DNA of 64,000 bases from the NCBI GenBank assembly GCA_038231435.1, contig JBBRLJ010000024.1, positions 1-64,000 on the forward strand, read 5' to 3'. A program made the translations under genes and the position numbers. The notes beneath the pieces are model-generated. The model was not told the origin of the DNA. It searched no databases and saw only the letters and a program-made list of their open reading frames with translations. Below, piece by piece: positions 46,533 through 64,000 of this stretch; position 1 is the first letter of the stretch; each line of letters starts with the position of its first letter. Origin of the DNA: Planctomycetota bacterium (lineage in GTDB: Bacteria > Planctomycetota > UBA11346).

Positions 46533-46809
46533 AGAGACTCCCGCGCGATCCGCACGACGCCTAGGCATCTGCGAGGGTCTCGCGAAGGCCCCGGTGCGAT
46601 TGCCGCAGGCTCCATGAGATACGGGACTTGCGTCTAAAATGACAGGTCCAGACTAGATCCGTTTACCCGCACTCCTCCGGTTCACGGATGATTCGGCGTA
46701 TCCCGCCCAGGCACCGTCCCAGGTGTCGCGCGCGGAGCGTGCCCCTACCCTATGTGCGAATGGCACAGGACCCATCCAGCATGACCCCCAGCAACGAGCG
46801 ATCGATCAG

Positions 46810-48096
46810 ATGAGCCTGTGCCTCACCCAGCGCATCGAGGAGATCACGTGCCGCGTGACCGGTCGCGCCCAGTCGTTGTTCCAGGCCGACTGCGACGCGC
46901 GCGCCGACCAGATCCGCGAGGCCATCCGCGGGCGGCGCATCCTGGTCGCCGGCGGCGCCGGTTCGATCGGCTCGGCGACCATCATCGAGCTGTTGCGCCA
47001 CCGCCCGGCGGCACTGGCGGTCCTCGATCCGAGCGAGAACAACCTCGCCGAACTGGTGCGCACCATCCGCGCGGGCGATGGTTTCTCGGGCGAGCTCTCG
47101 ATCGAACCGCTGCCGTATGGCAGCGCGATCGCGCGCGCGTATCTGGCGTCGCAAAAGCCCTTCGATCTGGTTCTCTCGTTCGCCGCTCTCAAGCACGTGC
47201 GCTCGGAACGCGATTCGTTCTCGAGCCTGCGCATGCTCGAGGTGAATCTCCTCGAGGCCGATCACTTCCTCGCGTCATTGCGTCTGCATGGTCATGGCAA
47301 GCACGGGGTGTTCTTCGTTTCGACCGACAAGGCGGCGAATCCAGTGAGCTTGATGGGCGCATCGAAGCGCGCGATGGAGCTGCTGCTCCATGCTCACAGC
47401 CAGTCCGGTGCTCCAACCAGCCTGATCCCTGGAGATCGACCGCTGCCACCCATGGCGGAATTGAAGAAGATCACGTCCACGCGTTTCGCGAATGTCGCTT
47501 TCAGTGATGGAAGTCTGCCGTGGGGATTCCTGCAACGGCTCGAGAAGTCCCAGCCCTTGGCGGCACCGAAGGACATCCGACGCTACTTGGTGTCGCCACG
47601 CGAATCCGGTCAGCTGTGTATGCTCGCCGCGCTGTGTTGCGCCCATCAATGCCTGATGATTCCGGATCTCGACCCCGCTCGCGATCTGGTGTCATTCATC
47701 GACATCGCTGCCGAGACGCTGCGCGCCCACGGCTTGGAGCCTGCATGGTACGATGATGAGGCGTCGGCGCGCGCGCATCTCGCGACCGACCGCGCGGCCA
47801 AGCGCTATCCGGTGCTGCGCACCATATCCGATACCAGCGGCGAGAAGGAGATCGAGGAGTTCGTAGGATCCGGTGAGCAAGCGATCGATATCGGTCTGAA
47901 GTCGGTGAGGTCGGTCGCGATACGAGGAGTTGGTCACTCTCGTGTATCGGCGCTGCTCATGTCTCTCGATATGTCTGCTGATTACGAAAAGAAGCATTCG
48001 TCCGAGAACAAGCGCGACTTCGTGAAGGAACTCGAATATTTTCTTCCAGGCTTCGCCCACCGCGAGACCGGCCGCTCGCTCGATGGGAAGATGTGA
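46810..48096 (+). CDS. NDP-GlcNAc 4,6-dehydratase (LegB/PglF-like, soluble)
   Basis: GGAGSIG, AALKHVRSERD, STDKAANP..LMGASKR, RFANVAFSDGSL. Confidence 0.88.
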   Translation: MSLCLTQRIEEITCRVTGRAQSLFQADCDARADQIREAIRGRRILVAGGAGSIGSATIIELLRHRPAALAVLDPSENNLAELVRTIRAGDGFSGELSIEPLPYGSAIARAYLASQKPFDLVLSFAALKHVRSERDSFSSLRMLEVNLLEADHFLASLRLHGHGKHGVFFVSTDKAANPVSLMGASKRAMELLLHAHSQSGAPTSLIPGDRPLPPMAELKKITSTRFANVAFSDGSLPWGFLQRLEKSQPLAAPKDIRRYLVSPRESGQLCMLAALCCAHQCLMIPDLDPARDLVSFIDIAAETLRAHGLEPAWYDDEASARAHLATDRAAKRYPVLRTISDTSGEKEIEEFVGSGEQAIDIGLKSVRSVAIRGVGHSRVSALLMSLDMSADYEKKHSSENKRDFVKELEYFLPGFAHRETGRSLDGKM

Positions 48097-49310
48097 TGGG
48101 CGCCACCATCCCGCTCTGCGAACCCTGTCTCGACGGCAATGCCGAACGCTACCTGCAGGAGTGCCTGAAGAGCACCTTCGTCAGCTCGGTCGGCCCGTTC
48201 GTCGAGCGCTTCGAGCGCGAATTCGCCGCCTATGTCGGATCTCCGCACGCGGTGGCCTGCGCTAGCGGAACCGCCGCGATCCATCTCGCGCTGCGCGCGC
48301 TGGGCGTCGGACGCGGCGACCTGGTGCTGTGCGCCGACTTCACGTTCATCGCCACCGCCAACCCCGTCGTCTACCAGGGCGCCATCCCGTGCTTCATCGA
48401 CAGCGAACCGGCGAGCTGGAACATGGATCCGCGCCTGCTCGCGAATGCCCTCGACGAGCTCGCCGCCGAGAAGCGCCTGCCCAAGGCGGTGATCGCCGTG
48501 CACATCCTCGGCCAGCCCGCCGACCTGGGGCCGATCCTCGATGCCTGCGCTCGCCACCGCGTGCCGCTGATCGAGGACGCAGCCGAGGCGCTCGGCGCAT
48601 CCTACGGCGCGGGATACCCGCATCCCGCCTGCCGCGGCCGCCAGGTGGGCTCCATCGGGCATGTCGGCTGCTACAGCTTCAATGGCAACAAGATCATCAC
48701 CACCGGCGGCGGTGGCATGATCACCACCGCGGATGGCGACCTGGCCAAACGCATCAAGCACCTGTCGACCCAGGCCAAGCAGCCGGGGCTGGCGTTCGTA
48801 CACGATCATGTCGGCTACAACTACCGCATGCCCAACCTCAATGCCGCATTGGGCGTGGCGCAGCTCGAGCGCATGCCGGCGTTCCTGGCGCGCAAACGCG
48901 CGATCGCCGAGCGCTACCGCAGCGCCTGCTCCGAGCTCGGTTTCGCCTTCCAGCCCGCGCTCGTCGACGTCCAGCCGAGCTGGTGGCTGCCGTCGCTGAC
49001 GGTCGGATCGATCCGCGACAAGCTGCTCGAGCGCTTGACCGTGGCAGGCATCGGTGCGCGTCCGCTGTGGCTGCCGGTATCCGAGCAGCCGTGCTACGCA
49101 TCGTTGCCGTCGTCAGCGTCCTCGACGTCGGCTCCGGACGCCGTCGGCCCGGGGAGGCGCATCTGGAGCTCGGGACTCGCGAAGCGGCTGGCACGCGAAG
49201 GACTCAGCCTGCCGTGCTCGGTCGGACTCGACGAGGCCACGCAAGAGCGCGTGATCGCTGAACTCGCCAATGCCGCCAGGGCCGTCGCAACCGCGAGCGC
49301 CACCCGATGA
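48096..49310 (+). CDS. legC: LegC-family (DegT/DnrJ) sugar aminotransferase
   Basis: FVSSVGPFV, SGTAAIH, FTFIATANP, EDAAEALG, SFNGNKIITTGGGG, GYNYRMPNLNAA. Confidence 0.92.
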   Translation: MGATIPLCEPCLDGNAERYLQECLKSTFVSSVGPFVERFEREFAAYVGSPHAVACASGTAAIHLALRALGVGRGDLVLCADFTFIATANPVVYQGAIPCFIDSEPASWNMDPRLLANALDELAAEKRLPKAVIAVHILGQPADLGPILDACARHRVPLIEDAAEALGASYGAGYPHPACRGRQVGSIGHVGCYSFNGNKIITTGGGGMITTADGDLAKRIKHLSTQAKQPGLAFVHDHVGYNYRMPNLNAALGVAQLERMPAFLARKRAIAERYRSACSELGFAFQPALVDVQPSWWLPSLTVGSIRDKLLERLTVAGIGARPLWLPVSEQPCYASLPSSASSTSAPDAVGPGRRIWSSGLAKRLAREGLSLPCSVGLDEATQERVIAELANAARAVATASATR

Positions 49311-49363
49311 CCCAAGACACGAACGATGTTCGCCGGCAGTGGACGGATCGGAGCTCCGAATGA
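49307..49363 (+). other. Bridging mini-ORF (18 aa, MTQDTNDVRRQWTDRSSE)
   Basis: ATGA overlap with the legC stop and with the neuC start. Confidence 0.55.
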
Positions 49364-50541
49364 TGCAGCTCGCGGTATTCACCAGCGGTCGGCAGGACGT
49401 CGGCATCATCGCGCCGGTCCTGCGCGAGCTCGCCGCGACGGCCGGGGTGCGCACCGAGCTGATCTCGGGCGGCCTGCATATCGGCCGCGGCAAGGCCGGC
49501 CGCGGCGCGCCCAAGGATATCGAGGGCTACCGCGTCGCCGCGTCGATTCCGGCTTTTCCCGACGGCGATTCCGATCTCGCGGTCGCGCGCGCGGCGGGCG
49601 AGACGACCCTGCAGATGGCAGAGACGCTGGTCACGCTCGGCTCGCAGGCGCTGCTGCTCGCAGGCGACCGCTCAGAGACCCTGGCGGCCGCACTCGCCGC
49701 CACCTGCCTGCGCCTGCCGATCGTGCATCTGCATGGCGGCGAGGAATCCGCGGGCGCCATCGACAACGCCTGCCGCCACGCCCTCACCAAGCTCGCACAT
49801 CTGCACTGCGTCGCCCACGCGGATTTCCGCGCGCGCCTGATCGCCATGGGTGAACGCGAGGACCGCGTGCACGTCACCGGCGCGCCCGCCCTCGACCAGG
49901 CCTGGTCCACGCCGCTGGATAACGCCGAGGAGCTCGCGCGCTCCCTCGGCCGTCAGGCGCTGGGGCATCCCCTGATCGTGATGACCCACCATCCGACCAC
50001 CATCGGCGGGCTCTCGCCCACCATCGAAATCGCGGCGGTCATCGATGGCGTGCGCGCGGCGGTGCGCGATCGCCCGGATGCGCTGGTGGTCATGACCAAG
50101 GCCAACCACGACGCCGGCGGCGGCGCCATCAACCACCTGCTCGCGGCGCAGGCTTCGGTGGACAGCCGCTTCATGCTCGTGGATGCGCTCGGCACCCGAC
50201 GCTACTACAGCCTGCTGGCGCTCGCCGATGCGATGGTCGGCAACAGCTCGAGCGGGATCCTCGAGGCGCCGACATTCTCGCTGCCAGTGGTGAACGTCGG
50301 CGAGCGCCAGCGCGGGCGGCTGCGCATAGGCGCGGTCGCCGACGCGCCGACGCAAGGGCCGGCGATCGGCGCCGCGCTGTCCCGCCTGCTCGCCTCGCCG
50401 CGCGCAGCGGGTGTCCCGGTGGCCACCGCGTACGGCGATGGCCACGCGGCTGCGCGCGTACGTGCGGCGATCGAGGCCTTCGCCGCCGAGCCTGCGGAAG
50501 CGCGTCTCGACAAGACCCCGCGCAAGAAGGGCGCCGCATGA
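49360..50541 (+). CDS. neuC: Hydrolysing NDP-sugar 2-epimerase (NeuC/LegG), copy 1
   Basis: GDRSE, HLHGGE..GAID...RHALTKLAHLH, GNSSSGILEAP, N.GERQ.GR, YGDG. Confidence 0.9.
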   Translation: MMQLAVFTSGRQDVGIIAPVLRELAATAGVRTELISGGLHIGRGKAGRGAPKDIEGYRVAASIPAFPDGDSDLAVARAAGETTLQMAETLVTLGSQALLLAGDRSETLAAALAATCLRLPIVHLHGGEESAGAIDNACRHALTKLAHLHCVAHADFRARLIAMGEREDRVHVTGAPALDQAWSTPLDNAEELARSLGRQALGHPLIVMTHHPTTIGGLSPTIEIAAVIDGVRAAVRDRPDALVVMTKANHDAGGGAINHLLAAQASVDSRFMLVDALGTRRYYSLLALADAMVGNSSSGILEAPTFSLPVVNVGERQRGRLRIGAVADAPTQGPAIGAALSRLLASPRAAGVPVATAYGDGHAAARVRAAIEAFAAEPAEARLDKTPRKKGAA

Positions 50542-51617
50542 CCAGGAATCTGCCGGAGCCGACGCTCGCCTCGTTGGTGGTGCGCCCCGAGGACAGCATC
50601 ATCGAAGTGATGCGGGCAATCGACCGCAACGGCTTCGAGGTCGCGCTGGTGTGCGATACCGGGCGTCGGCTGCTCGCGGTGGTCACCGATGGCGACATCC
50701 GCCGCGCGCTCATCCGCGGCGACGCCCTGACCCGCGCCATCGAAGGCGTCGGAAAGACGGCATTCACCTCGCTGCCCCCGGGTTCCACCCGTGCCGAGGC
50801 CCTGCAGCTGATGCTCACCCTCGGGATCAAGTCGGTTCCGGTGATCGACGCGGACAAGCGGCTGGTCGACCTGCATACGGTGCAGTTGGCGCTGAACGCG
50901 GCGGCATGCGCATCGTGGGCCGTGGTCATGGCCGGCGGAAAAGGCGAGCGCCTGGGCGAGCTGACCACCGGCATGCCCAAACCCATGCTGCCGATCGGCG
51001 ACCGCCCGATCCTCGAGCACATCGTCCAGCACCTGGTCAGCCACGGCATCCGCAGGATCTTCCTCTCGGTCAATTACCTCGGCTCGATGATCGAGGATCA
51101 TTTCGGGGACGGCAGCCGCTTCCACTGCCGCATCGACTACCTGCGCGAGCGCGAACCGCTCGGCACCGGCGGCGCCCTGGGCCTGCTTCCAGAACGGCCG
51201 ACGGCGCCGGTGCTGGTGATGAACGGAGATCTGCTCACCCGCATCAACGTTGGCAAGCTGCTCGACTTCCATCGCGACGCCAAGGCGGCGGCGACGCTCG
51301 CGCTGCGCGACCACGTGGTGAAGGTCCCGTTCGGCGTTGCCGAGATCAGCGGCGATCGCATCACCCGGCTGGTGGAGAAGCCCGAGGTCTCGTACCTGAT
51401 CAATGCCGGCATCTACGTGCTCGAGCCGCAGCTGCTGGCGCTGATCCCGGCGGGCGTGAACTATCCGATCACCCGCCTGGTGGAGCAGTGCCTGGGCGAC
51501 GGGAACACAGTGGCCGCGTATCCCATGCAAGAGGTGTGGGCGGACATCGGCGTGCCCGAGGAATACGATTCGGGCACCGCCAAGCGCCGTCCAGCGGGCC
51601 GCGGCTCGGCCACGTGA
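50538..51617 (+). CDS. CBS-domain sugar-phosphate nucleotidyltransferase (PtmE-like)
   Basis: VVTDGDIRR CBS pair; MAGGKGERL, PKPML, VMNGD, EKP, WADIG. Confidence 0.92.
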   Translation: MTRNLPEPTLASLVVRPEDSIIEVMRAIDRNGFEVALVCDTGRRLLAVVTDGDIRRALIRGDALTRAIEGVGKTAFTSLPPGSTRAEALQLMLTLGIKSVPVIDADKRLVDLHTVQLALNAAACASWAVVMAGGKGERLGELTTGMPKPMLPIGDRPILEHIVQHLVSHGIRRIFLSVNYLGSMIEDHFGDGSRFHCRIDYLREREPLGTGGALGLLPERPTAPVLVMNGDLLTRINVGKLLDFHRDAKAAATLALRDHVVKVPFGVAEISGDRITRLVEKPEVSYLINAGIYVLEPQLLALIPAGVNYPITRLVEQCLGDGNTVAAYPMQEVWADIGVPEEYDSGTAKRRPAGRGSAT

Positions 51618-51679
51618 GATATGCGCGTGGGCGCGGGGTTGCGCGCCAGCCGAGCGGCAGGTCCAGGTCGCCGACGTGA
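51614..51679 (+). other. Bridging mini-ORF (21 aa)
   Basis: GTGA overlaps at both ends (nucleotidyltransferase stop; flippase start). Confidence 0.5.
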
Positions 51680-53205
51680 GCATCCGCCGCTTCGCCACCG
51701 CTAGCGCGTGGATCTCTGGCGGACTGCTCGCTGGGCGTCTCGCGGGCTTCGTGCGCGAGTCGACCGTCGCGGCGACCTTCGGTGCCGGTGAACGCGCGGA
51801 CGCGGCGGTGCTGGTGCTGACCGTGCCCGACCTGCTGGTGAACATCCTCGCGGGTGGCGCACTGTCGGTGGCGCTGGTGCCGGAGTTCACCCGTCGCGCG
51901 CACGCTGATGGGCGCCGGCTGTTCCTGCGCGCGAGCGCGATCGTGGCGCTGGCCTTCGCGGCAGTCGCCATGGTCCTGGCGGTGGTTCCAGGCGTGCTGG
52001 TGTCCGCCCTTGCACCCGGGCTTCCCTCCGCCGCCATCGTCGACATCTCGGCACCGATGCGCTGGGTGTTGTGGTCGATCCCGCTGACCGCGCTCGCGGG
52101 CGTCAGCACCGCCTATCTGCAGGCCCGAGGACGCTTCGCGGTCGCGGCGCTCGGGACCCTGATCTTCAATACGGTGGTGATCGTCGGGCTGTTCGCGCTG
52201 GTGCGCCAGCGCGGTTCGCTCGACCTGCTGGCCCTCGCGATCATCGCCGCGTCGCTGGCGCGCTGGCTCAGCCAGCTCGCCGCCCTGCCCGGGCCGGACC
52301 TGTCGCGATCCGCGACTGGCGAGGTCCGGCCAGCGACGGACCTCGCCGCATCGCTCATGGCGCGCTACGGCCAGGCGCTGCTCGCAGGTGGATTCCTGCT
52401 GCTGCTGCCGGTGGTGGTGCGCGCGATCGCCTCGTGCGGAGACGCGGGCGGGATCGCCCGGATCAACTACGCGACCAAGCTGGTGGAACTGCCACTCGGC
52501 GCCTGCGTCACGGTGCTGTCGGTGGCGCTCTTCCCGAGGCTGTCCGAGCATTTCGGCGCGGATGCGCGCTCTCCCGCCGCCGCCACGCTGCTGCGCGAGG
52601 GGGTGCTCGCGGTTCTGGCATTGGCGCTGGCGGCGACGGTGGCCACCACCTGGTTCAGCGCCGAACTCGCGCGACTCGCCTTCGGCTGGGGCGGCATGGG
52701 CGACGACGCGATCGCGGCGGTGGGCGCGCTGGCGGCGATCGGGTTCCTGTCGCTGCCTGCGCAGGGCGTGTCGAGCCTGGTGGTGGCCGCCTTCAACGCC
52801 AAGCGCGACGTGGCGACGCCGATGTGGATCAACCTCCTGGCCTTGCCCGCGCTCGCTGGGGTGGGCTGGATCGCCTCCGGACGCTGGGGCCTGGTGGGAT
52901 TGATGGCGGCGCTCACTGGCACCTATTGGCTGGTCGCCATCACCCAGGTGGCGGCGCTGCAGATCCGTCACGGCATCGCGCTCGCGCCGACCCTGTGCGG
53001 GTTGCCCGCGGCCCGCTTGCTGGTCGCCTGCGTGCTCGGCTTCGCTCCGGTTGCGGCGTTGTGCCTGGTCTGGCATCCAGGCCGATTCGCCGCCACGGCT
53101 CTCGCTGGCGTGGGCTTCCTACTCGCCAACGGGGCGTGCGTGCTGGCCACCCCGCACTGGCGATCGCGCGCCCTGCATCCACGCCTGGCCAAGCCCTCGC
53201 CATGA
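51676..53205 (+). CDS. MurJ/MviN-like (MOP) flippase
   Basis: GRLAGFVRE..VAATFG...AD, ALVPEF, YATKLVELPLG, LFPRLS; about 13 TM segments. Confidence 0.88.
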   Translation: MSIRRFATASAWISGGLLAGRLAGFVRESTVAATFGAGERADAAVLVLTVPDLLVNILAGGALSVALVPEFTRRAHADGRRLFLRASAIVALAFAAVAMVLAVVPGVLVSALAPGLPSAAIVDISAPMRWVLWSIPLTALAGVSTAYLQARGRFAVAALGTLIFNTVVIVGLFALVRQRGSLDLLALAIIAASLARWLSQLAALPGPDLSRSATGEVRPATDLAASLMARYGQALLAGGFLLLLPVVVRAIASCGDAGGIARINYATKLVELPLGACVTVLSVALFPRLSEHFGADARSPAAATLLREGVLAVLALALAATVATTWFSAELARLAFGWGGMGDDAIAAVGALAAIGFLSLPAQGVSSLVVAAFNAKRDVATPMWINLLALPALAGVGWIASGRWGLVGLMAALTGTYWLVAITQVAALQIRHGIALAPTLCGLPAARLLVACVLGFAPVAALCLVWHPGRFAATALAGVGFLLANGACVLATPHWRSRALHPRLAKPSP

Positions 53206-53216
53206 GCCTCCTGTGA
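53202..53216 (+). other. Bridging mini-ORF (4 aa, MSLL)
   Basis: ATGA with the flippase stop; GTGA with the next start. Confidence 0.45.
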
Positions 53217-54094
53217 TCCGCCTGATCCTGATCACCAATAGTCCAGCGCTCGCGGCGCACGGCGCCGCCTGCGGCGTCGGCCGGGTCATGGTCGATCTCG
53301 AGATCCTGGGCAAGCACGAGCGCCAGGGCCACCTCGATACGCTGATCAGCGCCCACGCGATGTCCGACGTGCGGCCGGTGCGCGAAGCGGTGGCCGCCGC
53401 CAGAGCTGGGGCAGGGGCCGCCGAAGTGATGGTGCGCCTCAATCCGCTCCACGCCGGCAGCGGTGGCGAGATCGACGGCGCGATCGCGTCCGGCGCCGAG
53501 CTGCTGATGCTGCCGATGTGGCGCACCGCGTCAGAGGTGCGCGCGTTCTGCTCGCTGGTGCGCTCTCGCGCGCGCGTGGTGCCGCTCGTCGAGACCCCGG
53601 AGGCGATGCGCTGCGTGGGCGAGGCGGCGCGCGTGGAGGGGGTCTCCGAGCTCTACATCGGCTTGAACGACCTCCATCTCGGCCTCGGCATGACCTTCAT
53701 GTTCGAGCCGCTCGCCTCGGGACTGGTCGACGGCATGGCGCGCGATATCCGCGAGGCGGGCAAGCCCTTCGGTTTCGGCGGCATCGCCCGCGTTGGGCAG
53801 GGGACGCTGCCGGCGGAACGCATCCTCGGCGAGCACGTGCGGCTCGGGTCCTCGGCGGTGATCCTGTCGCGGGCGTTCCACGGTCAGGCTAAAGGCCTCG
53901 ATGGCCTGCCAGCTGGCCTCGACCTGGCGAGCGAGATCGCGGCGCTGCGCGCGGCCGAAACCAGGCTGCGGCAGCGCGATGCCGCGGCTGTCGAGGCCGA
54001 TCGCCTGGCGGTGGGCGCCGGCGTCGCGGAGATCGTCTTCGCCATCCGCGCCCGTCCGGCCAAGGATCCGCAGCGCGCGGGTGGCCGGCCGTGA
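53213..54094 (+). CDS. HpcH/HpaI aldolase/citrate lyase family protein
   Basis: VDLE..GK.ERQ, VRLNP, PLVET, YIGLNDLH, FGFGGIAR, ILSRAF. Confidence 0.85.
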   Translation: MIRLILITNSPALAAHGAACGVGRVMVDLEILGKHERQGHLDTLISAHAMSDVRPVREAVAAARAGAGAAEVMVRLNPLHAGSGGEIDGAIASGAELLMLPMWRTASEVRAFCSLVRSRARVVPLVETPEAMRCVGEAARVEGVSELYIGLNDLHLGLGMTFMFEPLASGLVDGMARDIREAGKPFGFGGIARVGQGTLPAERILGEHVRLGSSAVILSRAFHGQAKGLDGLPAGLDLASEIAALRAAETRLRQRDAAAVEADRLAVGAGVAEIVFAIRARPAKDPQRAGGRP

Positions 54095-54648
54095 AACGCG
54101 TGTTCGACGTGGTAGTCGCGCTGATCGCGCTGATCGCGCTGTCACCGCTCCTGATCCTCACCGCGCTGGTGGTGGTGTCGACCTCCCGTGGCGGGGTGTT
54201 CTTCCGCCAGGACCGCGTCGGCCGGGGCGGCGCCACCTTCCGCATCTTCAAATTCCGCAGCATGGTCGCCGGCGCAGACCGCGTCGGCCCCTATTCGACG
54301 GCTCCCGGTGACGCGCGCATCACCCGCGTCGGCCACGTGTTGCGGCGCACCAGCATCGATGAATTGCCGCAGCTCCTGAACGTGATCATGGGCCACATGA
54401 GCCTGGTCGGGCCGCGCCCCGATGTGCCCGCGCAGCGCGAGCTGTACAGCGAGGACGAATGGCGCTCCCGCCACGCCGTCAGGCCGGGCATCACCGGGCT
54501 GGCCCAGGCCACGCTGCGCTCGGCCGCGACCATGGAGCAGCGCAAGGCGCTCGATCTCGACTACGCGTCGCGGCCATCGCTGTGGTTCGATCTGCGCATC
54601 ATGGCCATGACCATCAAGCAGGTGCTGTTCAAGGGCGGCAACCACTAG
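54091..54648 (+). CDS. Initiating phosphoglycosyl (sugar) transferase
   Basis: [52 protein letters not shown]. Confidence 0.94.
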
Positions 54649-54716
54649 TGCGCAACTTCCGCGGAACGGACGTTTCCCGGATTGAACCCGTCACTCCGGC
54701 CGTGTCTGGCGCATGA
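54648..54716 (+). other. Bridging mini-ORF (22 aa)
   Basis: TAGTG overlap upstream, ATGA overlap downstream. Confidence 0.5.
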
Positions 54717-55891: not shown

Positions 55892-56019
55892 CCATCCACC
55901 CTGACCACCCACGCTCGCGGCCTCGGTCTTGCGCCACCATATCCCATGACCCAACGTCTCCATCCATGACCAATCGCCGACCGACCGTGCGCACCTGCTC
56001 CGACGCGGATCATCCATGA
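55888..56019 (+). other. Bridging mini-ORF (43 aa)
   Basis: ATGA overlaps at both ends (glycosyltransferase stop; neuB start). Confidence 0.55.
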
Positions 56020-57071
56020 GCGGAATCCCCGAACTCGACATCGGCATCCGGCGCATTGGACCGGGACACCCGTGCTTCATCATCGCCGAGGCCGGCGTCA
56101 ATCACGATGGCGATTACGATCAGGCGCGCCGGCTGATCGACGCCGCCGCCACTGCCGGCGCCGATGCGGTCAAGTTCCAGACCTGGCGCACCGAGCTGAT
56201 CTGCAAGCCCGGTGCCGCCACCGCCGCGTACCAGCAGGAGGCCACCGGCGCCGCCGACCAGTTCGCCATGCTCAAGGCTCTGGAGCCGCCCCAGGCCTGG
56301 CATGCGCCGCTGCGCGATCACGCGCGTGCGCGCGGCATCCTCTTCCTATCAACGCCTGACGAGATCGTCAGCGCGCGCTTCCTGCACGCGCTCGGGCTGC
56401 CGCTCCTGAAGATCGGTTCGGCTGAGCTCGACAACCTGCCGTTCCTGCACGCTGTCGGCGGTCTGTGCACGCCGATCCTGCTGTCCACCGGCATGGGCGA
56501 CCTGGCCGAGGTCGCCGCCGCGCTCGACGCCCTGCGCGCCGGCGGCTGCCCAGGCATCGGCCTGTTCCACTGCGTGAGCGACTATCCAGCGCCATTGGCG
56601 CAGATGAACGTGCGCGCGATCGAGACCCTGCGCCGCGCCTTCGGCGTGCCGGTGGGGCTCAGCGACCACTATCCAGGCGTGGAAGCGGCGCTGGCGGCGG
56701 TCGGCGTCGGCATGGACATCTGGGAGAAGCACTTCACCACCGATCGCGCGCGCAGCGGCCCGGACCATCGCATGAGTCTCGAGCCCGCCGAGCTGAAGGC
56801 GCAGATCCTGGCGGTGCGCGCGGCAGAGACCGCGTTGGGCGACGGCCGCAAGGTACCTCAGGCGTCCGAGCTCGCCACCCGCGCGGTGGTGCGCAAGCGC
56901 CTGTGCGCGGCGCGCGCCCTGCCCGCCGGACACGTGCTGGCTGCCGACGATCTCACCGGGCTGCGCGCCGAGCGCGGCCTGCCCATCTCGGCATGGAGCG
57001 CGGTGATCGGCCGCCGCCTGGCGCGCGCGGTCGGACATCTCGACGCGCTGGTCGACGAGGATCTCGGCTGA
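56016..57071 (+). CDS. neuB: Nonulosonic acid synthase (NeuB/LegI)
   Basis: IIAEAGVNHDG, DAVKFQT, KIGS, LSTGM, HCVSDYP, GLSDH, EKHFT, GPDH; C-terminal SAF domain. Confidence 0.95.
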   Translation: MSGIPELDIGIRRIGPGHPCFIIAEAGVNHDGDYDQARRLIDAAATAGADAVKFQTWRTELICKPGAATAAYQQEATGAADQFAMLKALEPPQAWHAPLRDHARARGILFLSTPDEIVSARFLHALGLPLLKIGSAELDNLPFLHAVGGLCTPILLSTGMGDLAEVAAALDALRAGGCPGIGLFHCVSDYPAPLAQMNVRAIETLRRAFGVPVGLSDHYPGVEAALAAVGVGMDIWEKHFTTDRARSGPDHRMSLEPAELKAQILAVRAAETALGDGRKVPQASELATRAVVRKRLCAARALPAGHVLAADDLTGLRAERGLPISAWSAVIGRRLARAVGHLDALVDEDLG

Positions 57072-58183
57072 TGAAAGCCGAGCCGCTGCGCCTGTGCGTG
57101 GTCTCGACCAGCCGCAGTGATCTGGGCCTGCTACTGCCGGTGGTGCGGGCGGCCAGCGCTGATCCGCGCTTCACGGCGCGCTTGGTGGTCACCGGCACGC
57201 ATCTCGCCGAGGGCACTCCCGACCCGGCCGAGCTTGCCGGCGTGGCCTCCACCCGGCTACCGCGGCCCGCGGATTCGCTCGGCCTCGTGCATCAGCAGGC
57301 GTTGCTGACATCGCTCGTGGACACCAAGACCGAGGCCGTGCTGCTGCTGGGCGATCGGTTGGAGCTGCTCGAGGCGTTGCTGCCGCTGGTGCGCGCCCGC
57401 GTCGCCATCGCGCACTGCTCGGGCGGAGAGACCACCGCGGGCGCCTGGGACGACCTGGTGCGCGACGCGGTCACCCGCCTCGCGCACCTGCACTATCCCG
57501 CGCACGAGCATGCGGGTGCATCGCTGCGCGCGCGTGGCGAGCAGGCGTGGCGGATCGCGGTGGTCGGAGAGCCGGGCCTGGACGCGATCCGCACCGAGCC
57601 ACGGATGTCCCCCGAGGCCCTGGCTGGGATCTGCGGCCGCGTCCCAACCCGCGACGATCTGCTGGTGGCGGTGCATCCGGTGACCGGGGTTCCGGGCGAG
57701 CTCGAGACCATCCTCGAGGCGGTATCCGGATTAGCGGAGACGTGGCCAGGCGCACTGTTCCTGTCGTCTCCGAACGGCGATCCGGGCAGTGACGACATCC
57801 GCGCCGCGTGGACGGCGCTCGCTCGCGCGCATTCGCGCGTGGTTGTGCTGGGCAACCACGGCGCCGCGTTCTTCCGTTCGCTGACCGCCGCCTGCGCGGT
57901 GGTGGTGGGCAACAGCAGCAGCGGTCTGGTCGAAGCGCCATCCTTGGGTACGCCTACCGTGGACGTCGGTTCGCGGCAGGGAGGGCGCCTGCGTGGTCCG
58001 AGCGTGGTGGACTGTCCGGCCGCGAGCGCCGTGGCGTTGTTGGCTGCCACGCGCACGGCGATCGCCAAGCGTACGCTCGCCAGCATGGACACGAATCCGT
58101 ATGGCGACGGCCGGGCGGTTCCCCGTTTGCTGGACCACCTCTGGGCCACCGCGCGACGTGCCGACGTGTTGATCAAGCCATGA
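57071..58183 (+). CDS. neuC: Hydrolysing NDP-sugar 2-epimerase (NeuC-like), copy 2
   Basis: SRSDLG, TGTHL, LGDRLE, GGE.T.GAWDD..R.AVTRLAHLH, GNSSSGLVEAP, NPYGDG. Confidence 0.87.
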   Translation: MKAEPLRLCVVSTSRSDLGLLLPVVRAASADPRFTARLVVTGTHLAEGTPDPAELAGVASTRLPRPADSLGLVHQQALLTSLVDTKTEAVLLLGDRLELLEALLPLVRARVAIAHCSGGETTAGAWDDLVRDAVTRLAHLHYPAHEHAGASLRARGEQAWRIAVVGEPGLDAIRTEPRMSPEALAGICGRVPTRDDLLVAVHPVTGVPGELETILEAVSGLAETWPGALFLSSPNGDPGSDDIRAAWTALARAHSRVVVLGNHGAAFFRSLTAACAVVVGNSSSGLVEAPSLGTPTVDVGSRQGGRLRGPSVVDCPAASAVALLAATRTAIAKRTLASMDTNPYGDGRAVPRLLDHLWATARRADVLIKP

Positions 58184-59283
58184 ACGATCTGATCGGCGGT
58201 AATCCCCCGGTGGCCGAGGCCTGGTTCGAGCCCGCGTCAGGAGAAGGCGCGGTGACCTGGCTTGCCAGCGGACGCGATGGCTATCTGCTCGCGGTGCTCG
58301 CCTCGGGCATCCGAGATTGGCTGGTGCCAGACCCGATCTGTCCGGTGGTCATCGAGGTGCTGCGCGCGGCGGGCTGCGCCGTGCGCGCCTACCGGCATGG
58401 CGGATTGGCGGATCACAACCGCAATGGCGCGGCCGTGGCGCTGGCCTGGGATGTCGCCGCCAGACCGCACGAGGCGGACATCGCCGCTGCGTCCGCCGCC
58501 GCGCTGGTGCTCGAGGATCGCTGCCTGTGGGCGGGCTTGCCTGCCGATCTGACAGCCGAGCCAGCGCACGAGCCAGCGGCAGGTGGTGGTCGGCGATGGG
58601 TCGTGGGCTCCGCGCGCAAATGGCTCGGCACCGCCGAGGGCGGCTGGCTGGTGTCGCCACGTTCCCTTGGGCTGCCGCTCGATCCGCCGGACCGGCGCCA
58701 TGCCGCGCTGCAGCTGGCCGCGGCGGCGGTGCGCGCCGCCAGGCGCGGTGGTGCCACTGCGTCCGATGCCACCGCTGCTGTGGCTGCTGGGTCCGACTCG
58801 AGTCCCGACCTCGAACGCGCGTCCCTCGCGCTGGTGCCGCTCGCCGAGGACGCGGTCGGAACTCCGCAGCGCCCGCGCGCGATGTCCCGGCTCGGCCGCG
58901 CGCTGCTCGGCCACGGCGCCGCCGAGGTCCGCGCCGAACGCGCCGCCACCACCGCCGCGCTCGCGGCTCGCCTCGGCGCGACCTGGACACCCGGGCCTGG
59001 CGCCAGCGCCCTGCGCCTCGCCTTCCCCACCGTCGAGTCGCGCGATGCCTGCAGGCAGGCGCTGAAGACCTCCGGCGTGCTCGCGCCGATCCATTGGCCG
59101 GGTGCGGCGTGGTCGGGCGAGGCCTCGGCGCGCGCGGCGATGATGCGAACGCTGACTCTGCCGGTTGCGGTGGGTGATGCCGGTCGCGCGGCCTACGTGA
59201 AGCTGATGGCGACCGTGCTCGATGGTTTTCCTGGCGTCCAGCCGGTCGAACGGCCGGCGGAGCCACCGCTCGGTCGCGCATGA
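58180..59283 (+). CDS. Divergent DegT-like PLP-fold protein
   Basis: SGRDG, VP..ICP.V, LED, GSARKWLG..EGG, PIHWP, TLP; ATGA overlaps on both sides. Confidence 0.65.
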   Translation: MNDLIGGNPPVAEAWFEPASGEGAVTWLASGRDGYLLAVLASGIRDWLVPDPICPVVIEVLRAAGCAVRAYRHGGLADHNRNGAAVALAWDVAARPHEADIAAASAAALVLEDRCLWAGLPADLTAEPAHEPAAGGGRRWVVGSARKWLGTAEGGWLVSPRSLGLPLDPPDRRHAALQLAAAAVRAARRGGATASDATAAVAAGSDSSPDLERASLALVPLAEDAVGTPQRPRAMSRLGRALLGHGAAEVRAERAATTAALAARLGATWTPGPGASALRLAFPTVESRDACRQALKTSGVLAPIHWPGAAWSGEASARAAMMRTLTLPVAVGDAGRAAYVKLMATVLDGFPGVQPVERPAEPPLGRA

Positions 59284-60299
59284 GCACGGTGACGGTGATC
59301 CCATCGCGCGACGCGCAGGCGTGGCGCGCGGCACTGGGCGTCTTCCCGGACGCCGACGTCTACCACGATCCGTGTTTCGCTGGCGCGGCCGCGCCAGCAG
59401 ACCTGTGGACGGTCGGCGACGGAGCCGATGCGCTGGCGGTGATCCTCGCGCGTCAAGCGTTGCCGGAATGGCTGGACGAGGCCGGCGGCGATGCCGAGAC
59501 CCCCAACGGATACGCGGCGCCGTTGGCCATCGGCGCGGGCGAGCGGCTCTGGCCGGCGCTGGCGGCGGCGCTGGCCCAGGCCGGCGTGGTGAACGCCTTC
59601 CTTCGCCTGCATCCGTTCCTGCCGCATCGCGTGGATCCGGCCTGGTACCTGGGCGCGCCGCATCCGACGGCGTGGATCCCGCTCGAAGCGGGCCTATCCG
59701 GAGCGTTCGCTGGCGGCCGCTGCTCGACGCATCGCTCGCAGGTGTCGCGCGCGGAACGCCTCGGACATGCGGTGCGCCTGACGCTCGCGCCAACCGCGGC
59801 CCGGCTGGACGGCTTCCGCTCCCTGTACGATCTGACCATGCAACGCCTGGGTGCCTCGACCGGTTATCGTTTCGAGGATGGATATTTCCATGCCCTCGTC
59901 GGCCTCGGCGATCGGCTCGCGCTCGTTGAGGTGACGGATGCGGCGGGCGTCCTGGTGAATGCGGCGCTGTTCATGCGCGGAGCGGCCTGGTGCCACTACC
60001 ATCTCAGCGCGCGCGGCGAACAGGCGCACAACAGCTCGGGCCATCTCCTGTTCACCGCCGCGGCCGCGTGGGCGGCCGAGCACGGTTGCCGGGGCATCCA
60101 TCTCGGCGGCGGCACCAGCGCCGAGCCGACGGATCCGCTGCTCGTCTACAAGCGGCGCATCGGCCGCGGCGATGCGGAATTCCGCACCGCCGGCGTCGTC
60201 GTGGACGCCGAGCGCCATCAGCGCCTTCGGGCAGAATGGTCGCAGCGCAGCCGTCGGCCGGGACGCTGGTTCCAGGCCTACCGCGAACCGCTGGCATGA
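59280..60299 (+). CDS. GNAT/FemAB-like acyltransferase
   Basis: D.ETPNGY, FLRLHPF, F..LY..TM.R, YHLS, HLGGG, YK. Confidence 0.8.
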   Translation: MSTVTVIPSRDAQAWRAALGVFPDADVYHDPCFAGAAAPADLWTVGDGADALAVILARQALPEWLDEAGGDAETPNGYAAPLAIGAGERLWPALAAALAQAGVVNAFLRLHPFLPHRVDPAWYLGAPHPTAWIPLEAGLSGAFAGGRCSTHRSQVSRAERLGHAVRLTLAPTAARLDGFRSLYDLTMQRLGASTGYRFEDGYFHALVGLGDRLALVEVTDAAGVLVNAALFMRGAAWCHYHLSARGEQAHNSSGHLLFTAAAAWAAEHGCRGIHLGGGTSAEPTDPLLVYKRRIGRGDAEFRTAGVVVDAERHQRLRAEWSQRSRRPGRWFQAYREPLA

Positions 60300-60445
60300 T
60301 TCGGGCCGGCATGACGGGAAATGCGCGTTCCGCCATCGTGCCCGGGTCGCAGCATGCGCTCGACCGCGGCGGACACGTCCGCGGCAGCGAGGTGGCGGTG
60401 ATGCATCGGCGTTCGATACCTGCGGCCTGGATGGTCACGCCATGA
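60296..60445 (+). other. Bridging mini-ORF (49 aa)
   Basis: ATGA overlaps at both ends (GNAT stop; oxidoreductase start). Confidence 0.55.
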
Positions 60446-61350
60446 GATGCCTGGTCGTGGGCTTCGGATCCATCGGCCGCCGCCATGCTCGCCTCATCCG
60501 GGATGCTGGCCACGAGGTCGAGATCGTGTCGCGCCAGAGCGACAGCGGATTCCGCCGGCACATCGGCATCGCCGAGGCGTTGACGACGCGCTTCGACTAC
60601 GTGGTCATCGCCAATGCGACCGTGGACCACGCTCCCGCGCTCGATGCGGTGGCGGCGAGCGGACACGCCGGCGTGGTGCTGGTCGAGAAGCCGATCTTCG
60701 CCCAGCCGCGCGCGCTCCCCATCCATCGCTTCGCCGCGCTGTGGGTCGGCTACAACCTGCGATTCCATCCCTGCGTGCAGTCGGTCCGCCGCGAGCTCGC
60801 CGGCCGCCGCGCCCATTCGGCGAGCGCGTACGTCGGGCAGTGGTTGCCGTCGTGGCGGCCCGACACCGATTACCGCGTGTCGTATTCGGCCGATGCGGCG
60901 CAGGGGGGCGGAGTGGCGCGTGACCTGAGCCACGAGATCGATCTGGCCGGTTGGCTGTTCGGGCCCTGGCGCAGGCTCGCAGCGCTCGGAGGGCGGTTCT
61001 CGGCGCTCGAGATCCGCAGCGACGATACGCTCTCGATGCTCGCCGAATGCCAGCGCTGCCCTGCGGTGCAGATCCATCTGGATTACCTCGATCGTCGCGG
61101 CCGGCGGCACTTGACCGTCAACCACGACGGCGGCACCATCCACGCCGATCTCGTCGCCGGCACGGTGGACGGAGCTCGCAAGGAGCGCCACGCCGTGCAT
61201 CGCGACGACACCTACAAGGCGATGCACCGTGCGGTCCTCGAGGGCGTTGGCGCCTCGTCGCTGTGTTCGGCCGACGAGGCGATGGCGACCCTGCGCGTGG
61301 TGATGGCTGCTGAAACATCCGTGAACGAAAGGACCTGGCGATGGCTGTGA
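60442..61350 (+). CDS. Gfo/Idh/MocA oxidoreductase (PtmF-like)
   Basis: VVGFGSIGRRH, LVEKP, GYNLRFHP, YRVSYSA...GGGV.RDLSHEID. Confidence 0.9.
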   Translation: MRCLVVGFGSIGRRHARLIRDAGHEVEIVSRQSDSGFRRHIGIAEALTTRFDYVVIANATVDHAPALDAVAASGHAGVVLVEKPIFAQPRALPIHRFAALWVGYNLRFHPCVQSVRRELAGRRAHSASAYVGQWLPSWRPDTDYRVSYSADAAQGGGVARDLSHEIDLAGWLFGPWRRLAALGGRFSALEIRSDDTLSMLAECQRCPAVQIHLDYLDRRGRRHLTVNHDGGTIHADLVAGTVDGARKERHAVHRDDTYKAMHRAVLEGVGASSLCSADEAMATLRVVMAAETSVNERTWRWL

Positions 61351-62045
61351 GCCGAATCTGCACGATCTGCGCGCGTGGCGGCTCGAAGGGGCTGAAGAAC
61401 AAGAACGTCATGCCCTTGAAGGGCAGGCCCCTGATCGCCCACTCGGTCATCCAGGCGCTGGCCACCAAGCTCTTCGACGTCATCGCCGTCAGCAGCGATT
61501 CGCCCGAGATCCTCGCGGCCGCCCAGGCCGCCGGGGCCCAGCTGCTGATCAAGCGCCCCGACGAGATGGCCACCGACACCGCGGCGAAGGTCCCGGCCAT
61601 CAAGCACTGCCTGCTCGAGAGCGAACGTCTGACCAAGCGCACCTTCGACGTGCTGGTCGATCTCGACGCGACCTCGCCGCTGCGCACGCCCCAGGATGTC
61701 ATCGACGTGGTCGAGATGCTCGAGGCGGGCGACGCGTCGAACGTCATCACCGCCTGTCCGGCCCGGCGCTCACCGTACTTCAATCTCGTCGAGGTCGGCG
61801 CCGACAACGTGGTCAGGTTGTCCAAGCCGCCCGCGTCGGCGATCGTGCGCCGCCAGGATTCGCCCGATTGCTACGACATGAACGCCTCGATCTACGCGTG
61901 GTGGCGCCAGATCCTGATCGACGAGCCCCGTGTGTTCCTCGACAAGACCAGGCTGCACGTCATGCCCCGCGAGCGCTCGATCGACATCGACGACGACGTG
62001 GATTTCCTGGTGGTCGAGACGCTCATGACCAAGGCGATGGCATGA
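61341..62045 (+). CDS. neuA: Acylneuraminate (nonulosonate) cytidylyltransferase (NeuA/LegF/PtmB)
   Basis: CARGGSKG..NKN, VSSDS, TSPLR, SPYFN, RRQD, SIDIDD. Confidence 0.94.
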   Translation: MAVSRICTICARGGSKGLKNKNVMPLKGRPLIAHSVIQALATKLFDVIAVSSDSPEILAAAQAAGAQLLIKRPDEMATDTAAKVPAIKHCLLESERLTKRTFDVLVDLDATSPLRTPQDVIDVVEMLEAGDASNVITACPARRSPYFNLVEVGADNVVRLSKPPASAIVRRQDSPDCYDMNASIYAWWRQILIDEPRVFLDKTRLHVMPRERSIDIDDDVDFLVVETLMTKAMA

Positions 62046-62863
62046 CCTCGTACCGCGCGCTGTTCGATCTCTCGGGCAAGGTTGCCATCGTCACCGGCGG
62101 CGCCGGCATCCTGGGTACCCGTTTCTGCACCGGTCTCGCCGAATTCGGCGCCGACGTGGTGGTGGCGGACATCGACGCGGGCAAGGGCGCCGAGCTGGCC
62201 GCGCGGCTCGCCAGCGCGCACCAGGTGCGCGCGGCGTTCGTCCCGTGCGACGTGGCGGACCCGGCCTCGGTGAGCGAGATGGTGAAGCGCGTGGTCACCG
62301 ATTTCGGCGGCATCCACGTCCTGCACAACAACGCTGGCGGCAAGTCGAAGGATCTCGAGAAGTACTTCGCGCCGATCGAGTCCTACTCGCTCGAGCAGTG
62401 GCGCGAGAGCATGGCGGTGAATCTCGACGGCATGTTCCTGGTCGCGAAGGAAGTCGGCGGTCAGATGATCCGGCAGGGCGGCGGCGGCTCGATCGTGCAG
62501 ACCGCGTCGATCTACGGCGTGGTCGCGCCAGACCAGCGCATCTATGAGGGCTCGAGCTACCTCGGACGCGCCATCAACACGCCAGCGGTCTATTCCACCT
62601 CGAAGGCCGGCGTCGTGGGTCTGACCCGCCACCTGGCGACGGCCTGGGCCCACCACCGCATCCGCGTCAACACGCTTACCCCGGGTGGCGTCCAGAGCGG
62701 CCAGAACGAGGAGTTCAAGCGCCGCTACTCGGCGCGCATCCCGCTCGGGCGCATGGCCGAGGGAGAGGAGATGGTCGGCGCGCTGGTATACCTGGCGAGC
62801 GACGCCTCGAGCTATGTCACCGGCCACAACCTGATGGTCGATGGAGGGCTGAGCGCGTGGTGA
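62042..62863 (+). CDS. SDR oxidoreductase (PtmA-like)
   Basis: TGGAGILG, NNAG, SIYG...PD..IY, YSTSKAG, RVN...PGG. Confidence 0.92.
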   Translation: MTSYRALFDLSGKVAIVTGGAGILGTRFCTGLAEFGADVVVADIDAGKGAELAARLASAHQVRAAFVPCDVADPASVSEMVKRVVTDFGGIHVLHNNAGGKSKDLEKYFAPIESYSLEQWRESMAVNLDGMFLVAKEVGGQMIRQGGGGSIVQTASIYGVVAPDQRIYEGSSYLGRAINTPAVYSTSKAGVVGLTRHLATAWAHHRIRVNTLTPGGVQSGQNEEFKRRYSARIPLGRMAEGEEMVGALVYLASDASSYVTGHNLMVDGGLSAW

Positions 62864-62925
62864 AGCGCGGCGAAGCGTCTCCAGCCGGCCACCAGTGCCT
62901 TCGGACTCCGTCCACGAACGCATGA
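62860..62925 (+). other. Bridging mini-ORF (21 aa)
   Basis: GTGA with the SDR stop; ATGA with the next start. Confidence 0.5.
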
Positions 62926-64000
62926 CCGCCAGCGGTCCCATCATTCCAGCGAATCCCTCGGCGCCGCGGCGCTCCTGGTTCGACCGCCGCCAGATCGTCC
63001 AGGCCGCCTGGATGCTGATGGATGCGCTGATGATGGTCGCGGCTATGGCCACCACCTCGGCGCTGATGGGCCGCGAGCCGCCGTCGGAGTACCTGTCGAT
63101 CCTCGCGCTGATCATCGCGGCGCGCGCACTGGCGTTCTATTGGCTGGGCCTCTACCACTCGGTGCTGCGCTACTCCGGCATCCATACCGTGCTGGTGACC
63201 GTCGCCGGCATCGGCATCGGCTCGGCGGTCGGCATCACGGTGTCGATCTTCAGCGACATCCACACACCGGTGGTCGCCCAGCTCGGCCGCGTGTTCATGG
63301 TCATGGAGGGCCTGCTCAGCCTGGTGGCGTGCGGTGGCTCGCGTCTGTTGGTGCGCATGGTGTTCGAACGCCAGGGCGGCGGCGATGCCCAGCGCGTGCT
63401 GATCTATGGCGCCGGCTCCTTCGGCGAGCTGGTGCTGCGCGACCTGCGCCGCCTCGGCGGCTATACGCCGATCGGCTTCCTCGACGACGACGCGAAGAAG
63501 CGCGGTACCCTCATCCATGGCCGGCGCGTTTTCGGAGGCCTGGCCGAACTCAACGCCATCGTCGAGCGCCGCCACCCGGACCTGGTGATCATCGCCATCA
63601 GCGACCTACAGCCGGCGACCGCGCGCACGCTCTTTCAGGCGTGCATGGCGCGCAAGGTGCGCGTGCTGGTGATGGGCGGCGTGGGTTCCGCGCTCGGCAC
63701 CCAGGGCGGCATCAACCTGCGCGAGTTGGCCCTCGAGGACCTGCTCAGCCGTCCGTCGCGATCGCTCGACGCCTCGCCGGTGATGCGCATGCTGAAGGGC
63801 CGGTCGGTGCTGGTCACCGGCGCGGGCGGCTCCATCGGCTCGGAGCTGTGCCGGCAGATCGCCGGGATGGAAGTCTCGAAGCTGGTCATCGTCGACCATG
63901 GCGAGCTCAACCTCTACACCATCGACAGCGCGTTGCGCGACCGCTTCCCGAACCTGACGGTGGTGCCGGTGCTGTGCAACCTCCAGCACCGCCCGACCCT
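62922..64000 (+). CDS. Membrane nucleoside-diphosphate sugar dehydratase (CapD/PglF/WbpM type), truncated by the window end
   Basis: Manual translation: N-terminal TMs, RVLIYGAG, GFLDDD, EDLLSR, VLVTGAGGSIGSELCRQI. Confidence 0.92.
   Translation, partial: MTASGPIIPANPSAPRRSWFDRRQIVQAAWMLMDALMMVAAMATTSALMGREPPSEYLSILALIIAARALAFYWLGLYHSVLRYSGIHTVLVTVAGIGIGSAVGITVSIFSDIHTPVVAQLGRVFMVMEGLLSLVACGGSRLLVRMVFERQGGGDAQRVLIYGAGSFGELVLRDLRRLGGYTPIGFLDDDAKKRGTLIHGRRVFGGLAELNAIVERRHPDLVIIAISDLQPATARTLFQACMARKVRVLVMGGVGSALGTQGGINLRELALEDLLSRPSRSLDASPVMRMLKGRSVLVTGAGGSIGSELCRQIAGMEVSKLVIVDHGELNLYTIDSALRDRFPNLTVVPVLCNLQHRPT

Follow-up and report, generated by a model that had tools for sequence, protein, structure and literature searches.

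That translation of neighbouring genes can be coupled by termination–reinitiation at −4/−1 overlaps was reportedly set out by Huber et al. in 2019 (PMC6728339). The same NTGA/TGATG geometry occurs at every hand-over in the 16-gene glycan operon considered herein, which lies at the end of a 64,000-nt stretch of a Planctomycetota genome (positions 1–64,000 of contig JBBRLJ010000024.1; hereafter, the window), and in which 7/7 non-overlapping gaps hold a stop-free mini open reading frame (ORF), in frame, herein termed a bridge. According to the available text of Huber et al. 2023 (PMC10666635), −4/−1 overlaps couple translation by termination–reinitiation, and a spacing of approximately 20 nt nearly abolishes coupling in reporters. 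Such coupling has been described for real gene pairs, whereas in the operon a disposable ORF appears to supply two such junctions serially, chaining the whole operon.

Mycobacterial interspersed repetitive units (MIRUs) harbour, in the accessible part of PMC12548453, an internal ORF that is −4-coupled to the downstream gene, as is the case for 7/7 bridges. MIRUs are, however, described there as a multi-copy repeat family, whilst the DNA filling the window gaps is single-copy and unrelated from gap to gap. With regard to mobility, sister genomes differ in the presence of filler at junctions other than those of the window (G046 versus G022, and G000, the genome of the window, versus G002) with no common element, and the window junctions are mostly without an orthologue. 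Unlike a repeat family, bridges are evidenced by a phase signature over many unrelated fillers. The short ORFs of integrons (ORF-11 of attI1, and those of attC sites) boost downstream translation by termination–reinitiation with the peptide mattering little, as far as the available text of PMC8876359 goes; bridges would resemble them in both respects. attC sites are imperfect palindromes between genes, whereas the window gaps possess neither a cassette repeat nor a hairpin (the six longer gaps are not unusually folded, with z of −1.6 to +1.3 against mononucleotide shuffles), and the operon is of chromosomal type, unlike integron cassettes. Ribosome-delivering upstream ORFs (uORFs), such as uPPE2 (PMC11260477) and those of bicistronic designs (PMC12548453), hand ribosomes on via an AUGA overlap, much as bridges would; in the portions of these sources at hand, uPPE2-type uORFs have their own ribosome-binding site in the leader, whilst bridges would be fed by the stop of the upstream gene. 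The literature searched, subscription papers being outside the search, yielded no description at genome scale of intergenic ORFs that are coupled at both ends. Bridges are a real feature that appears to be under selection, a variant of known translational coupling for which the comparative backing is unusually clean.

Geometry of the glycan operon

Each bridge opens on the stop of the upstream gene (ATGA in four cases, GTGA in two and TAGTG in one), and all seven terminate in NTGA (ATGA or GTGA) at the start of the next gene, with lengths, in order, of 18, 21, 4, 22, 43, 49 and 21 aa. The remaining eight of the 15 gene junctions are direct overlaps. A preliminary description of this DNA had listed the seven bridges and these eight overlaps (48094, 50538, 54091, 57069, 58180, 59280, 61341 and 62042); translation recovered 7/7 bridges at the same coordinates, and every overlap is visible in the sequence. 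At 61341, where the overlap is 10 nt long, a GTGA in the correct frame is also available at 61347, so that 15/15 gene junctions can be read as −4/−1. Sixteen genes and seven bridges therefore form a chain of 23 ORFs with 22 junctions, 22/22 of which display a −4 or −1 stop/start overlap (using the 61347 GTG for one), and which ends with the stop of the last gene at contig position 64826, just beyond the window. This run of 15 consecutive coupled gene junctions makes the operon an outlier within G000, where the next-longest run is 6. The features are as follows, with genes numbered g1 to g16.

46752–46813, + strand: possible leader relay, two uORFs chained by ATGA overlaps into the g1 start
46752–46784, + strand: leader uORF 1, 10 aa; ATGA end overlaps uORF 2
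46781–46813, + strand: leader uORF 2, 10 aa (17 aa if from 46760); ATGA end on the g1 start
46810–48096, + strand: g1, Polysacc_synt_2 dehydratase-like; TGATG overlap with g2
48096–49310, + strand: g2, DegT/LegC-like aminotransferase (TIGR04181, 398 bits, cut-off 420)
49307–49363, + strand: bridge 1, 18 aa, ATGA to ATGA (also TGATG)
49360–50541, + strand: g3, NeuC hydrolysing UDP-GlcNAc 2-epimerase (TIGR03568 above cut-off)
50538–51617, + strand: g4, CBS plus nucleotidyltransferase (profile match)
51614–51679, + strand: bridge 2, 21 aa, GTGA to GTGA
51676–53205, + strand: g5, MurJ-family flippase (profile match)
53202–53216, + strand: bridge 3, 4 aa, ATGA to GTGA
53213–54094, + strand: g6, HpcH/HpaI aldolase-family protein (profile match and homologues)
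54091–54648, + strand: g7, bacterial sugar transferase (profile match)
54648–54716, + strand: bridge 4, 22 aa, TAGTG to ATGA
54713–55891, + strand: g8, glycosyltransferase-like (profile match)
55888–56019, + strand: bridge 5, 43 aa, ATGA to ATGA; two further internal ccATGAcc (ATG at 55946 and 55966)
56016–57071, + strand: g9, NeuB-family nonulosonate synthase (PF03102)
57071–58183, + strand: g10, second NeuC-like epimerase (profile match)
58180–59283, + strand: g11, no family assigned (no Pfam or NCBIfam match)
59280–60299, + strand: g12, GNAT, Acetyltransf_6 (profile match)
60296–60445, + strand: bridge 6, 49 aa, ATGA to ATGA
60442–61350, + strand: g13, Gfo/Idh/MocA oxidoreductase (profile match)
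61341–62045, + strand: g14, CMP-sugar cytidylyltransferase (PF02348); overlap becomes GTGA if read from the in-frame GTG at 61347
62042–62863, + strand: g15, SDR oxidoreductase (profile match)
62860–62925, + strand: bridge 7, 21 aa, GTGA to ATGA
62922–64000, + strand: g16, membrane-anchored Polysacc_synt_2 dehydratase-like; runs on to contig position 64826

Phase and stop avoidance across the genome

Genes in G000 (GC content 67 %) were called with a codon-pair model that holds no overlap information, yielding 3,956 genes (86 % coding) and 2,505 co-directional neighbour pairs, 347 of which overlap by −4/−1. A one-step bridge requires a gap of 1 mod 3 (phase 1), whilst a gap of 2 mod 3 merely extends the downstream gene in frame, and one of 0 mod 3 leaves it uncoupled. 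A strict set was formed from 555 of the 1,160 pairs with gaps of 10–150 nt, in which the downstream start cannot be moved back toward the upstream stop. Strict pairs with the motif at both ends are distributed over phases 0, 1 and 2 as 13, 62 and 5; because the strict filter depletes phase 2, the fair contrast is 13 versus 62 (phase 1 versus 0, both-motif against other pairs, Fisher p = 8 × 10⁻⁸). Almost all of the both-motif phase-1 gaps are stop-free (61/62, against 243/390 controls; p = 1 × 10⁻¹⁰), giving 61 strict bridges where 8.6 are expected under independence. Removal of the operon leaves phases of 13, 59 and 5 with 58 bridges, and the unfiltered pairs show 20, 98 and 40, with 86 bridged; beyond 150 nt the signal fades (5, 6 and 3). 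In a check that does not depend on start calls, the base preceding TGA is A in 18.8 % of gaps of phase 1, compared with 7.4 % at convergent gene ends, and mini-ORF stops fall exactly at the −4 position in 46/186 ATG and 53/277 GTG cases. The genome-wide count against controls that had been proposed beforehand thus favours the original claim with regard to phase, stop-freeness and the contrast to convergent ends. A null model based on deletion shifts was dropped, as one shift was inflated by mis-called starts, and the strict phase test was used instead.

With gaps of 10–250 nt, the strict bridged fraction is 63/690 in G000, 4/44 in regions taken at random from further genomes of the family and 2/94 in four high-GC outsiders. 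In the same gap range it is 0/27 in G032, a low-GC member of the phylum, and 0/6 in G020, and 57 low-GC glycan loci have 4/180 (gaps of 10–150 nt). The pattern is genome-wide and family-wide rather than peculiar to the operon, which is its extreme. The comparison also suggests that bridging is lineage-specific (p = 0.016), although this is not established because the out-group controls are small.

Orthologous junctions in the family

Within the genome set that was searched, the class consists of a single family with 48 genomes. Ten junctions that are bridged in G000, and one neighbouring unbridged junction, were read in the family genomes (at most 30 loci each), leaving out loci in which one or other gene of a pair was missing; the gene names (cdaA, lpxD, surE, ribH, pdhB etc.) are those we presume from recognition of the sequences. 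Counts below are in the order direct/near/bridged/unlinked, with G000 included unless stated. For the first six junctions the commonest unexpanded state is a direct overlap.

cdaA–cdaR, 29 of 30 loci: 25/0/4/0
lpxD–lpxC, 29 of 30 loci: 23/1/4/1
response regulator–surE, 20 of 29 loci: 5/1/10/4
surE–ABC, 22 of 29 loci: 10/8/2/2
ribH–nusB, 30 of 30 loci: 18/6/2/4
moxR–DUF58, 5 of 7 loci: 2/1/1/1
pdhB–pdhC, 27 rows: 1/2/4/20, three of the bridges in one genus (124, 124 and 226 nt)
pilC–gpmI, 11 rows: bridged in G000 only
gpmI–bioD, 12 rows: 3/4/1/4
secG–pdhA, 9 rows: 3/1/1/4
pdhA–pdhB, 28 rows: 8/12/1/7

At these six junctions the 129 rows from genomes other than G000 comprise 83 direct, 17 near, 17 bridged and 12 unlinked, such that 17/29 expanded junctions are bridged. 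Where expansion has kept both motifs this rises to 17/18, with unrelated fillers of 4–229 nt; a binomial probability of 7 × 10⁻⁵, valid if rows were independent, overstates the case because the grouping of junctions is post hoc and related genomes do not count as independent. Eleven of the 12 unlinked rows lack one motif, and L263, classed as ‘near’, is ambiguous. At the response regulator–surE junction 10/10 motif-keeping expansions are bridged, in seven genera, by gaps of 121, 76, 190, 37, 163, 52, 229, 34, 58 and 4 nt, all of which are 1 mod 3 and open. These fillers share at most 14 points of local alignment and three are strong hairpins, whilst close sister genomes differ as direct versus bridged, or as 34 versus 58 nt, a difference of 24 nt. 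The comparison of orthologous gaps, also proposed in advance, hence came out in favour of frame retention, both in the 17/18 and in the uniform phase at surE. The contrast between direct and unlinked junctions fits a model in which bridges are retained where coupling is ancestral.

These counts bear on how the operon itself should be regarded. The preliminary description put the chance of frame agreement at (1/3)⁷, about 1 in 2,200, which measured frequencies expose as the wrong null: 7/7 has a probability of about 2 × 10⁻¹³ under independence with measured motif and stop frequencies, 2 × 10⁻⁷ under the strict bridge rate of G000 (61/555), and about 0.02 under the process-aware rate of expanded family junctions (17/29). 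Because of this last value, the operon is best viewed as lying at the far end of a process that affects the whole family.

Window junctions can be followed to a lesser degree, as gene order is shuffled among kin. The g2–g3 pair is direct or within 8 nt in 6/6 distant loci, and g5–g6 is direct in one kin genome, with two others displaying a different 4-codon mini-ORF that ends 1 nt before the start. The g1–g2 junction is direct in G000, G004 and G021 and bridged in G020 and G006. Kin glycan operons have unrelated bridges of their own (three in G006, two in G020, and one each in G004 and G008), that of G008 being a 157-nt bridge between NeuC-like and GNAT genes, where the window carries g11. A class-level search for the aldolase gene returned five kin loci. 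None of the 14 loci from a metagenome scan is a close syntenic operon, and the operon was not found in two same-genus genomes searched, both of which are incomplete.

Sequence of the fillers and reliability of the starts

The seven window fillers are mutually unrelated, and the six longer ones have only chance-level matches of 17–21 nt in the genome, indicating that they are single-copy. The codon model places these six bridges between −0.81 and +0.01, whereas gene segments score +0.50, and no tblastn match to them exists in 4.2 Mb of fetched loci or in the rest of the genome. The earlier impression of unrelated, random-looking peptides is upheld by these scores and by the lack of conservation at orthologous junctions.

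As to origin, recent tandem duplication of the junction was rejected as a general source, as 0/93 genome bridges have ≥6 extra matching flank bases, and upstream flank identity is 0.302 versus a null of 0.303. Repeat elements were likewise rejected for the G000 fillers (23/76 versus 91/389, no enrichment). In kin, some fillers with ATGA at their boundaries consist of short repeats in inverted arrays or of small tandem expansions. Family intergenic DNA more generally often contains inverted 7-nt tandem-repeat arrays or longer palindromes that form strong hairpins (z to −9.7), seen in L267, L270, L272 (a surE-like junction), L027:4638–4808, L027:6714–6881 and the bridges of L030; a mobile or self-expanding repeat family is possible. 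The ccATGA motif occurs four times in bridge 5, and may there record old duplications of the junction that happened repeatedly.

Starts in the window are backed by profile and homologue alignments. The overlap-blind caller picked the bridged start for 6/7 downstream genes; for the seventh it chose 60457, but the product read from 60442 matches the Pfam Rossmann profile from its residue 1 onward. Two GTG starts that had been a matter of choice in the preliminary description hold: no other start lies between 51676 and the in-frame stop that precedes it, with the MurJ profile matching from residue 10, and 53213 has offset 0 in 99/119 homologues. Alternative in-frame starts exist for g3, g13 and g16. 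Contigs from two other sequencing runs match the window with 0–1 differences and without gaps over bridges 2 and 4–7, and assembly error is therefore unlikely at these. In four DNA runs the matching sequence was either of the same strain or in short, diverged pieces, with no usable bridge indel variants among the matches listed.

Initiation and transcription signals

Shine–Dalgarno (SD)-like motifs precede 3/16 operon starts and 1/7 bridged starts; a search with short motifs did not locate the 16S 3′ end, which would carry the anti-SD. A sigma-70 scan of the operon returned 0 promoter-like sites, and the one plus-strand terminator-like site, inside g7, is below the shuffle mean. As SD-like motifs are so few and no promoter-like site is present, the operon, with every gap bridged, is probably under unusually strong coupling constraint. 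Genome-wide, a leaderless −10-like box directly 5′ of the start occurs in 1/48 bridged versus 72/510 unbridged gaps (p = 0.013), such that bridged genes look operon-internal. A TANNNT box peak lies 12–13 nt before G000 starts (96/1258 heads, 55/510 unbridged gaps and 0/347 direct overlaps), which suggests leaderless mRNAs alongside SD use. The two-step uORF arrangement is found at 23/1258 divergent gene heads, and the leader pair at 46752–46813 may be due to chance. Rho is present in G000 above the profile cut-off, together with two NusG-family genes (C17:34941–35255 and C57:23411–23659), one of which could serve long operons as a dedicated antiterminator.

Explanations for the bridges

Geometry, phase bias, stop avoidance and turnover of filler sequence are direct observations. 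The best reading of them is that overlapping junctions were probably expanded by inserted DNA and that purifying selection kept those fillers that preserve coupling; the mini-ORFs would then be frame-only linkers that maintain translational coupling across expanded junctions, to which a probability of roughly 0.72 is assigned. DNA would enter at or just after an ATGA overlap, leaving ATGA at each end; its putative source would be the insertion of hairpin-type short repeats, tandem expansion on a small scale, or an N-terminal extension that has been frameshifted. A terminating ribosome would re-initiate on the first ATGA, read the filler, terminate on the second and re-initiate on the next gene. 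Fillers of the third phase, or containing a stop, would uncouple the downstream gene and be purged, unless initiation signals of its own were gained. Ribosomes would in this manner be handed over along the whole operon. Selection on reading-frame continuity rather than on peptides, as originally proposed, gains support from the phase and stop-freeness test and from the orthologous gaps.

Several observations weigh against frame-only linkers. Approximately 9/61 strict bridges are expected by chance, and L267 is a true counterexample, being unbridged at a coupled junction despite keeping both motifs. The junctions were selected for being bridged in G000, kin are non-independent, and the junctions were sorted into mostly direct and mostly unlinked ones only once the data had been seen. 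At mostly unlinked junctions bridging looks near random, with 1/11 rows bridged at pilC–gpmI and 4/27 at pdhB–pdhC, where five both-motif rows are unbridged; the G000 bridge at secG–pdhA, which is non-strict, is probably based on a wrong start. Only 2/7 bridged window pairs are adjacent in other genomes. SD motifs are not clearly rarer at bridged genes genome-wide (16/62 versus 207/579), and folding of the start region does not differ between bridged and unbridged genes (p = 0.33). Finally, G000 fillers carry no origin signature, with neither flank duplication nor repeat enrichment.

Ribosomes might alternatively serve as cover, hiding a translated gap from Rho or nucleases, or melting hairpins over the next start, with the downstream gene initiating de novo. 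Stop-free fillers are predicted by this explanation too, both Rho and NusG-family genes are encoded, and some family fillers are strong hairpins (z of −6.5, −6.7 and −9.7), yet the six longer window gaps lack unusual structure. Furthermore, cover has no need of a stop landing exactly on the next start codon; because such landing at −4 is what is seen, re-initiation is favoured over mere anti-Rho cover. The accessible part of PMC11260477 also describes a mycobacterial uORF–gene AUGA pair in which moving the stop downstream lowered expression, in favour of re-initiation over Rho. Overall, cover is an unlikely explanation. Avoidance of occlusion of the next start was rejected, as an early stop would suffice, yet early stops are precisely what is missing. 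A neutral by-product, in which insertion or duplication leaves ATGA at both ends and, at high GC, a third of gaps bridge by accident, accounts for the presence of both motifs, for the 62 % of control gaps that are stop-free, and for the chance-like bridges at mostly unlinked junctions. It predicts, however, equal phases 0 and 1 (observed, 13 versus 62), about 62 % stop-free gaps (61/62) and bridging of about half or fewer of the motif-keeping expansions (17/18), and it needs a fixed class of insert length, whilst lengths span 4–229 nt in unrelated sequence. For the class it is largely refuted and quite improbable, although single bridges may have arisen in this way.

That the true starts lie elsewhere, or that gaps are frameshifted N-termini, probably applies to the secG–pdhA-like example and might be entertained for g3, g13 and g16, which have alternative starts. 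The strict set has no such alternatives, however, alignments back the window starts, and independent contigs agree across bridges 2 and 4–7, making an annotation artefact very unlikely in general. Just as improbable is a reading of bridges as genuine small proteins, or as remnants that selection has preserved from deleted genes. The bridge frame slightly exceeds other stop-free frames in its resemblance to genes (−0.41 versus −0.61, p = 4 × 10⁻⁴), 2/48 genome bridges score like genes, and the 157-nt bridge of G008 sits at the position of g11; the longer window bridges nevertheless fall well short of gene segments in codon score, have no tblastn match, and orthologous bridges share no sequence.

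Gene content and neighbouring genes

The operon appears to be a nonulosonic-acid-type glycan cluster of the legionaminic/neuraminic kind, with a NeuB synthase, NeuC epimerase and CMP-sugar synthetase all present (PF03102, TIGR03568 above cut-off at g3, and PF02348). The LegC, NeuB and PseF equivalog models score under their cut-offs. As in known clusters for these sugars, NeuB, two NeuC, a cytidylyltransferase, a LegC-like aminotransferase, dehydratase-like genes, a flippase and transferases occur together, whilst gene order differs from that of kin glycan clusters. The closest NeuB relatives (68–81 % identity; L021:20467–L022:2206, L023:12068–13786 and L025:5271–7019) possess an extra N-terminal domain of ~230 aa, which is absent from the window NeuB. 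In G008 (L025:2839–5274) the g1 homologue lies within an 811-aa ORF that seemingly continues into the aminotransferase, by fusion or frameshift. Genes 3′ of the operon, beyond the window (G000:C24:64934–68544), have a low codon-model score and are not overlap-coupled, which suggests a separately acquired glycan module.

Significance

Bridges would account for some of the small, unconserved ORFs that would be listed as microproteins in ribosome profiling. The phase test is usable on any genome set, and would mark junctions reliant on re-initiation. A recent survey (10.64898/2026.09.10.750558) regards short overlaps, in its available text, as evolutionarily labile with weak functional links; bridged junctions would count there as overlaps lost, though coupling may persist. 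With 4–49 codons, the seven bridges of this one operon are a ready series for measuring re-initiation after very short ORFs. It is conceivable, though doubtful, that re-initiation accounts for nearly all translation of the 18-kb operon, passing down 23–25 coupled ORFs and launched by the two leader uORFs, and that intergenic DNA within operons across this deep-branching class codes for frame only (length mod 3, no stops and free turnover). If true, such frame-only coding would let hairpin-type repeats colonise operon junctions. The bridges offer evidence of a population-genetic type that stop/start coupling may be important enough in nature to hold junk DNA in frame.

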